Shown in pieces: positions 56,395 through 56,601 of a stretch of DNA of 64,000 nt. The notes beneath the pieces were generated by a model. That model worked only from the letters and a program-made list of their open reading frames with translations. It had not been told where the DNA came from and ran no database searches. Location of the stretch: NCBI GenBank assembly GCA_963676915.2, contig CAXXVK010000072.1, forward strand, positions 1 to 64,000, in the 5' to 3' direction. The position numbers and the translations under genes are program-made. The stretch is from Myxococcota bacterium (lineage in GTDB: Bacteria; Myxococcota_A; SURF-8; G963663525). Positions within the stretch are counted from its first letter, which is position 1; every line of letters starts with the position of its first letter.

Positions 56395-56601
56395 CGTTCA
56401 CCCTTCCTTGCTCATGCGGGCTCATCGGTGTACAATGGCCCTAGCGACTGTTCGGGCTTCCCGGACAAAACGGGCGGCGGATCCAGCTACACACGGGTTG
56501 AAAAACCCAAGGTCGGGACGATCTCGCCGCCCGATGCTCCCTGGGCGGCCGCCCAGGGAGCATCACCATTTTACCACAACAAACACCTGAAAACTGACAC
56601 A
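56395..56601 (-). ncRNA. Predicted IS110 bridge RNA
   Basis: 5' 32-nt palindromic hairpin (56533-56564); loop carrying CCCGACCT and GTAG (target); loop carrying ACAGTCGCT and CAAG (donor); ends approximate. Confidence 0.8.

Follow-up and report, generated by a model that had tools for sequence, protein, structure and literature searches.

The 64,000-nt stretch of DNA analyzed here (the window; contig CAXXVK010000072.1 of the Myxococcota assembly GCA_963676915.2, positions 1 to 64,000) carries an insertion sequence of the IS110 family on its minus strand (56615-55442), and the left end of this element very probably encodes a bridge RNA of the IS621 type. A sequence-only reading of the window had predicted an RNA at this place that would encode the guides for both the target and the donor of an RNA-guided recombinase. 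This prediction is supported by the identical junctions of six copies of the element, by matches of a covariance model (R1) and by the covariation of guides with DNA. The anatomy of the RNA region, the junctions, the homology to IS621 and the covariation can be observed in the sequences compared, and from these the transcription of the RNA, its ends, its binding by protein and its role in recombination are predicted. All parts found in the window are given as read on the minus strand.

The genome (74 contigs, 5.18 Mb) contains six full, near-identical copies of the element, which are 1173-1175 bp long; with one copy of the CT core counted at the right end, the window copy has 1174 bp and the intact copies have 1173 bp. 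All six copies start with TGTATGATC right after ...ACCT and finish with ...ACAGTCGCT, followed by AC, and the common junctions can be written as xCCCGACCT/TGTAT...ACAGTCGCT/AC, where slashes mark the ends of the element. These ends are fixed because exactly the same junctions are shared by six copies. The ends (TGTAT... and ...ACAGTCGCT) do not form terminal inverted repeats; a 2-nt CT core is found at both junctions, including both sides of the window element, and the right flank is AC in all six copies as well as in a truncated copy in C58. In the window, the right junction (55450-55440) is composed of the left donor ACAGTCG (55450-55444), the core CT (55443-55442) and the right target AC (55441-55440). 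Moreover, contigs from public runs that carry other copies of the adjoining repeat, which resembles a repeated extragenic palindrome (REP), match the window up to two points where they diverge from it, one exactly at 56616 and one at 56675-56680, and this fits the limits assigned to element and repeat. The differences among the six copies amount to four substitutions and two indels, and columns 1-488 of the copy comparison, which comprise the entire RNA region, are the same in all six.

The RNA region begins with a 5' stem-loop (56564-56533), a perfect 32-nt palindrome (16-bp hairpin), which matches itself on the opposite strand at 100% and abuts the target-binding loop. The target-binding loop module (56532-56472), identified by the fold, the R1 match and stem covariation, has an outer stem in which GGGCGGCG-A-GAUC pairs with GAUC-CGCCGCCC; on the DNA, a nine-base stem of CGGGCGGCG (56533-56525) with CGCCGCCCG (56479-56471) can be read. 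This module carries the 9-nt left target guide UCCCGACCU (56518-56510), whose last 8 nt, CCCGACCT (56517-56510), are also found immediately to the left of the element (56623-56616). An inner hairpin with the stem GGGTT/AACCC (56508-56495), seen in the fold, is followed by the right target guide GUAG (56490-56487), which is the complement of CT+AC at the right junction (55443-55440), and directly by the handshake dinucleotide CU (56486-56485). In the window, the target loop matches its DNA at 8 of 9 positions of the left guide and at 4 of 4 positions of the right guide. The donor-binding loop module (56456-56401), placed by model alignment to relatives and to IS621, has an outer stem of CCC (56456-56454) with GGG (56403-56401). 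It carries the left donor guide ACAGUCGCU (56451-56443), which is the same as the last 9 nt of the element (55450-55442; as DNA, ACAGTCGCT) in 9 of 9 positions, an inner hairpin with a bulged A (56441-56418), the right donor guide (56415-56407) and the handshake dinucleotide GA (56406-56405). Every coordinate given by the sequence-only reading for the palindrome, the stem, the guides, GTAG and CAAG proved correct on the minus strand. CAAG (56410-56407) is the complement of CT+TG at the left junction, as had been proposed, but the right donor guide extends beyond it to the 9-nt AUGAGCAAG, which would pair discontiguously with the core and the left end. When the 223-nt left end was shuffled 200,000 times by mononucleotide, 513 shuffles contained the 8-mer, 135 the 9-mer and one both.

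A single-sequence fold of 56575-56393 (-87.2 kcal/mol, z = -4.06) contains the 5' hairpin as well as the two inner hairpins and, in the first module, the long outer stem. Further support for the structure comes from related loci, of which 13 were fetched from genome contigs and 80 from metagenome contigs. In a structure-blind MAFFT alignment of 28 left ends, the scaffold and the second loop are conserved and the first loop is highly variable. RNAalifold recovered from this alignment only the two inner hairpins and a short donor stem; the outer stem of the target loop was missed because it is variable and gapped in the alignment, and the structure was therefore written by hand from the window row and tested by counts and controls. 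Across the 28 left ends, 85.8% of the cells were paired, compared with 75.5% in shuffles, and the covariation score was 0.273, compared with 0.121 in shuffles (0 of 500 shuffles reached 0.273). With the partners slid by 1-3 columns, only 28-48% were paired. The donor-loop pair 99-166 covaries (CG in 25 rows, UA in 3), and the short outer stem of this loop is placed by covariation and homology, not by the single-sequence fold. The 5' hairpins of many relatives with long leaders are GC-rich, near-perfect and unrelated in sequence, and abut the first loop; among the 47 leaders that reach 30 nt, 33 have a folding energy of -10 kcal/mol or lower, and no 5' hairpin was found in relatives with leaders of 15-60 nt.

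R1 matched the window once in 64 kb (122 bits) and was found just upstream of the transposase gene in 85 of the 90 related loci. In the genome of the window it matched the six copies and one weak relic. Among 30 related genomes, matches were found in four genomes of the same order (eight copies each in G003 and G005, one each in G007 and G009), and no match was found in one other genome of the same genus. R1, although it contains no IS621 sequence, also gave five matches in Escherichia coli W (42.6 bits, E 7.6e-8), each of which adjoins one of five genes that match the window protein at ~30% identity. These five genes were taken as IS621; one was looked up and is named "IS110-like element IS621 family transposase". 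Alignment to a covariance model, which had been suggested as a check along with the sequence-only reading, thus connects the window to 85 of 90 related loci and to all five IS621 copies of E. coli W. By blastn, the element had no match in complete E. coli genomes; IS621 is too diverged at the DNA level and was therefore reached through the covariance model and the protein.

In the same model columns, the left target guide is AUCGGGCCU in IS621 and UCCCGACCU in the window, the right target guide is GUAG in both, the left donor guide is ACAGUAUCA in IS621 and ACAGUCGCU in the window, and the right donor guide is AUUUGCAAG in IS621 and AUGAGCAAG in the window, with the same discontiguous pattern. 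The IS621 segments obtained from the model alignment agree with the residues reported for the IS621 RNA (left target guide 50-58, right target guide 77-80, right donor guide 157-158 and 162-165, handshake 81-82 and 166-167; Hiraizumi et al. 2024, PMC11208158) and with the reported IS621 target ATCAGGCCTAC (Durrant et al. 2024, PMC11208160). The two systems share the order of parts, which had been claimed earlier and was confirmed by the alignment of R1 to the IS621 copies: a 5' hairpin at the same place, a target loop with a 9-nt left guide, a hairpin, GUAG and handshake bases, and then a donor loop with a 9-nt left guide, a longer hairpin, a 9-nt discontiguous right guide and handshake bases. 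They also share the CT core, the right target AC, the right donor TGTAT and insertion at the 3' arm of a host REP palindrome, and in E. coli W the flanks and ends of IS621 meet as ...TTATCAGGCCT/TGTAT... and ...ACAGTATCT/ACG. The IS621 donor, which had been given as ACAGTAT-CT-TGTAT, was read as such from an IS621 copy of E. coli W. As the sequence-only reading had stated, the donor of the window element resembles that of IS621 (left donor ACAGTCG compared with ACAGTAT), whereas the target differs (CCCGAC-CT-AC compared with ATCAGGC-CT-AC). The protein is 31% identical and shorter (310 aa, compared with a 981-nt coding sequence, 326 aa, in IS621), the element measures 1173 bp compared with ~1.28 kb, and the handshake dinucleotides are CU and GA rather than AU and GU. 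The 5' hairpin of the window element is a perfect one of 16 bp; that of IS621 is reported to be conserved in structure but not in sequence, and to be helpful but not essential (PMC11208158). The window system is known from sequence alone, whereas the IS621 RNA has been reported to guide recombination by experiment (PMC11208160).

If the left end encodes guides, they should vary with the DNA that they pair with, as had also been proposed for the homologues in the sequence-only reading. Junctions were defined by promoter boxes only (left, TG + TATNNT; right, TTGAC + 13 nt + CT) and guides were taken from model columns; 85 rows had a full first loop and 80 had distinct target loops. In these 80 loci, the left junction was found in 58 and the right junction in 62, the rest being cut by contig ends or off-pattern. 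The left target guide matched the left flank at 4.90 of 7 positions (58 loci), compared with 2.38 +/- 0.16 in permuted pairings (maximum of 2000: 2.86), the right target guide matched the right flank at 4.16 of 5 positions (62 loci), compared with 1.50 +/- 0.14, and the left donor guide matched the right end at 6.90 of 7 positions, compared with 5.90 +/- 0.08; the related loci are not independent, and these permutation figures are not probabilities. The first two bases of the right flank (positions 10-11) both matched in 61 of 62 loci, and some of the guide-flank misses are one-base register shifts from extraction. The base after the right target guide is Watson-Crick complementary to donor position 7 in 62 of 62 loci (58 C-G, 3 U-A, 1 A-T), and the base after the right donor guide is complementary to target position 7 in 53 of 60; 0 of 5000 permutations reached these values, which, for the same lack of independence among loci, gives no probability either. 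With their cognate DNA, by comparison, the handshake bases pair in only 5 of 60 and 3 of 62 loci. In the window, C faces donor G7 and G faces target C7, but complementarity does not extend to the second handshake base. Across the family, the covariation of target, donor and handshake guides with the flanking DNA goes far beyond that of permuted pairings.

Sister genomes, which switch guide and REP together, provide a cleaner natural contrast. In G003, the three loci examined among eight copies carry the guide UCCCGACCU and are all inserted at CCCGACCT. In G005, where three loci were likewise examined among eight copies, each carries UCCCAUCCU and lies within a GATGGGC...GCCCATCCT palindrome (two of these loci have common flanks, possibly through duplication), and the single locus of G009 has the guide UCCCAUCCU and the same kind of palindrome. 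In G007, the guide UUCCGACCU is found at ...GATCGACCT, with 6 of 9 positions matching. Among the genome contigs, L022, L024 and L025 form a group of close relatives that share more than 300 nt upstream of the RNA, and their left end is therefore much longer. Their right target guide is the 7-nt AUUAAAG, matching CT-TTAAT, and two copies of this group in one metagenome-assembled genome have different left target guides, GUUGGACCU and AUGACCCCU.

The covariation also bears on the possibility that the left end is only a cis-acting 5' leader for the translation or stability of the transposase, with the matches to target and donor as by-products of descent. A leader function is suggested by a likely Shine-Dalgarno sequence, AAGGAAGG (56409-56402), which lies within the right donor guide and the stem and precedes the ATG by 8-17 nt, and by the fact that RNA and gene follow each other without a terminator. 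A mere leader would not account for guides that change in step with host DNA outside the element or for handshake bases that covary across loops, and the homologous IS621 RNA, as reported, guides recombination (PMC11208160). A leader role may coexist with a guide role, and the explanation by a leader function alone is very improbable.

The DNA that would be recognized by the first loop belongs to a host repeat. The left target in the window consists of GCCCGAC (56624-56618) and the core CT (56617-56616) and represents the 3' arm of a REP-like palindrome; its context (56678-56616) is a REP-like composite palindrome of GTAGGTCGGGC...GCCCGAC units with the last hairpin at 56640-56618. More than 40 similar copies of this repeat are found in the genome. 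The insertion site is CCCGAC-CT-AC, and the 10-mer CCCGACCTAC is present at 133 free sites, compared with 11.5 expected from composition; a GTCGGG arm lies at most 40 nt upstream in 118 of the 133, and the base before the 10-mer is G at 92 sites, A at 39, T at 1 and C at 1. At five of the six insertions, the left flank consists of the 3' arm of a GTCGGGC-N8-GCCCGAC hairpin, and there the left target guide matches at 8 of 9 positions; the sixth flank, in C53, reads AACGGACCT, which is off-consensus and outside a REP. Genome-wide, the REP-like family is made up of GTAGGTCGGGC-N8-GCCCGACCTAC units, which are often paired; in addition to the 133 perfect sites that are free, 5 are occupied.

Two boxes at opposite ends of the element could explain how the RNA would be transcribed. 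A -35 box, TTGACT (55462-55457), overlaps the stop codon at the right end and lies 15 nt before this end, and a -10 box, TATGAT (56613-56608), lies 2 nt inside the left end. Joined ends would form a TTGACT-17 nt-TATGAT promoter (spacer 15+2 = 17 nt), as far as a sequence pattern can tell, with a predicted transcription start near 56601. This geometry (-35, 13 nt, CT, TG, -10) recurs in relatives, and the IS621 of E. coli W has it as TTGCAG, 13 nt, CT, TG, TATTAT; of the 80 family loci whose target loops are distinct, 62 have TTGAC + 13 nt + CT 3' of the gene. A scan of the integrated context (56350-56760) yielded neither a sigma-70-like promoter nor a terminator-like site. A transporter gene is located upstream (58051-56744) and, because it shares the strand, read-through into the element would be possible, as reported for genomic IS621 copies (PMC13626964).

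Taken together with IS621, these features suggest the following cycle. After excision, a circle would join the right and left ends, and the resulting promoter would transcribe ~200 nt of the left end. The RNA would fold into the 5' hairpin and two internal-loop modules, of which the first would pair with the target, i.e., the 3' arm of the host REP-like palindrome, and the second with the joined ends of the element, ACAGUCGCU with ACAGTCG-CT and, discontiguously, AUGAGCAAG with CT-TG-T-AT. The DEDD/Ser recombinase, intact in four sister copies, would exchange strands at the CT core, and after strand exchange the handshake base C (after GUAG) would pair with donor G7 and the handshake base G (after CAAG) with target C7.

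A number of observations weigh against a bridge RNA in this position. The motif expected for a circle junction occurs 0 times in the assembly and in none of the public-run contigs, and these contigs also contain no empty site for the window locus. The two-loop part alone folds with z = -1.98 only, and the minimum-energy fold lacks the 3-bp outer stem of the donor loop, as CCCG pairs with the linker instead. Base 1 (U) of the left target guide is mismatched at 5 of 6 insertions and the matching T precedes only 1 of the 133 free sites; as this base does not match the usual target, the effective left target guide here would be 8 nt long, as given in the sequence-only reading. The insertion in C53 matches the guide at 6 of 9 positions only. 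Since there is no terminator between RNA and gene and the start codon is found 8 nt past the last stem, a discrete small RNA is only putative, and the transcript, its ends and its processing are predictions made from the sequence. None of the sequencing runs listed for this sequence is recorded as RNA. No Rfam family reached its threshold with this region, all matches being below threshold. Finally, the transposase gene of the window copy is frameshifted by one extra (fourth) A in the run at 55687-55684.

One of the sub-threshold Rfam matches raises the possibility that the functional transcript is encoded on the plus strand, as a small antisense RNA similar to sX15. Rfam sX15 (RF02234) aligns over its full length to 56396-56542 of the plus strand (30.2 bits, E 0.01), and Xanthomonas sX15 and asX7 are reported to be transcribed from a plasmid as a complementary pair that has 10 homologues on the chromosome of a Stenotrophomonas (PMC3300014). 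However, the score is well below the gathering threshold (55), neither strand contained a promoter-like site, and the guides, in the sense known from IS621, sit on the minus strand; moreover, the reverse complement of a helical RNA will score against such a model by symmetry. A functional plus-strand transcript is thus extremely unlikely, and sX15 was rejected as the identity of the feature, given the opposite strand and the score. The alignment and the reported homologues suggest that the sX15 family itself sits on the left end of an IS110-type element.

The transposase gene (56392-55459) extends from the ATG at 56392-56390 to the stop codon TGA at 55461-55459, with a broken frame in the window copy. 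An intact protein of 310 aa is encoded by four of the six copies (C19, C37, C43 and C53); the frame of the copy in C22 has an extra GG. The protein contains the domains PF01548 (8e-26) and PF02371 and, in an intact copy, matches the NCBIfam model NF033542, "IS110 family RNA-guided transposase", with 220.7 bits (cut-off 140). By sequence it is a transposase of the IS110-family DEDD/Tnp type, with a predicted DEDD RuvC-like N-terminal domain and a C-terminal Tnp domain that would contain the catalytic Ser. D7, E51, D93, D96 and S232 are invariant in 28 relatives. Among 8000 scored candidates, 6780 relatives were found at E <= 0.001; the closest protein (P0002) is 95% identical and the next one 61%. 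Matches to solved structures include ISCro4 (E 7e-36) and IS621 (E 4e-30). With six near-identical copies, four of them intact, the element looks recently active. A second, distant IS110-family transposase gene is found in C53 (180063-181213; 65-69 bits in two pieces, under the family cut-off), and no R1 match was found near it.

The extra A raises a more serious alternative, namely that the window copy is a dead relic, in which the RNA gene is kept by recent descent only and which the frameshift has taken out of transposition. This is a real possibility, although we do not favor it. The extra A is absent from the other five copies and truncates the protein just past the catalytic Ser motif, and other decayed copies are present in the genome (the +GG in C22, the truncation in C58 and the relics in C60 and C27). 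Nevertheless, the left end and both junctions are the same as in the four intact copies, so that mobilization in trans would be possible, and the extra A, being in a homopolymer, could be an assembly error; collapsed short-read contigs do not contain it, but these cannot resolve single copies. The window copy may be non-autonomous and, if the extra A is real, it would depend on its sister copies in trans. The sequence-only reading had called for a frame-corrected recombinase, but the four intact copies of this genome make a correction unnecessary. A programmed +1 frameshift at AAA-AGG was considered as well and dropped, the extra A being missing from the other five copies.

Apart from the six full copies, several remnants of such elements were found in this genome. 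At ~183,310-183,900 of C60 (minus strand; part of L008), ends of the element enclose foreign DNA, with neither an RNA gene nor a transposase: a REP is followed by a diverged left end of ~58 nt, which has a mutated core and stops where the 5' hairpin would start, by an AT-rich segment of ~440 nt that contains a small open frame, by a second REP, and by the last 16 nt of the right end and AC. A joint of 55458 to 56561 in public run X1 was considered as an excision product and rejected, as it fits this diverged relic. At 77-473 of C58 (L007, L009), a 5'-truncated copy opens the contig. A REP with CCCGACCT at its end precedes ACTTGCT, the element is present from ~position 830 to the right end, ACTTGCT then occurs once more, and the run of A in this copy is AAA, not AAAA. 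Either aberrant recombination or an error of assembly could have produced this arrangement. An orphan, decayed two-loop RNA region (36 bits with R1) is found at 18612-18743 of C27 (minus strand); no transposase follows, and it lies upstream of a gene that, judged by eye only, looks like a beta-eliminating lyase (tryptophanase-like). Public runs X2 and X3, which come from another study with another organism label, contain a ~95% identical element over 1122 nt (57 differences; window 55440-56562) together with the same kind of repeat, so that a close relative of the element occurs elsewhere.

In elements of the IS1111 group, the gene precedes the RNA and the inverted repeats are subterminal. In the window element, by contrast, the RNA lies upstream of the gene, as in the IS110 group. 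The IS1111 group, with its seekRNA, belongs to the same transposase superfamily and follows the same principle of RNA guidance (PMC11208160). Among solved structures, the best match is to the ISCro4/IS622 bridge recombinases (PDB 9t56; reported in the Perry et al. 2025 preprint; E 7e-36, residues 3-301), a likeness by protein to a different orthologue. ISPpu10 and ISPpu9 of Pseudomonas putida, also IS110 elements, are reported to use repeated extragenic palindromes as insertion sites, like the window element. A GC-rich stem-loop is described 5' of the paired bases in the target of ISPpu10; likewise, five of six insertions here are at the 3' arm of a GTCGGGC-N8-GCCCGAC hairpin. The one in C53 differs in being outside a REP.

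The conserved CAAGGAAGGG (56410-56401), which comprises right donor guide, handshake bases and stem, resembles a Shine-Dalgarno sequence of the transposase, 8 nt before the ATG. Two further ideas follow, which are offered tentatively and are rather unlikely to hold: that this 3' strand of the donor loop doubles as the Shine-Dalgarno sequence of the transposase, and that the lineage retunes its left target guide to the REP of each host. In the first case, RNA folding or binding by the recombinase would switch off the element's own translation, and the guide RNA would be the mRNA leader and not a separate small RNA. A literature search for a link between bridge RNAs and ribosome-binding sites (RBS) returned unrelated papers, and neither "ribosome" nor "RBS" occurs in the available text of PMC13626964; the idea may still have been published. 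In the second case, two guide bases (CCCGAC, CCCAUC) would follow the host REP families within one bacterial order and provide a natural series for the co-evolution of guide specificity and host repeats.

The sequence-only reading had suggested that the element may be new. As an orthologue of the IS110 group it is, although the supplementary tables of Durrant et al. may already list it or a near relative; the mechanism, REP targeting and the family are established, the kind is already known, as the words "RNA-guided" in the name of the NCBI protein family indicate, and the known mechanism is unchanged by the window element. What the element adds is a compact predicted bridge-recombinase orthologue (310-aa protein, 1173-bp element). 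The junctions of its six copies define a natural target, CCCGAC-CT-AC, and a natural donor, ACAGTCG-CT-TGTAT, and sister elements of other genomes within the order have another natural target guide. It could reasonably be added to the screens of orthologues that have been run for bridge editing. For annotation, a 200-nt "intergenic" stretch and the adjoining repeat belong to one mobile unit, and the window represents a tidy case of an IS110 element living off the REP repeats of its host.

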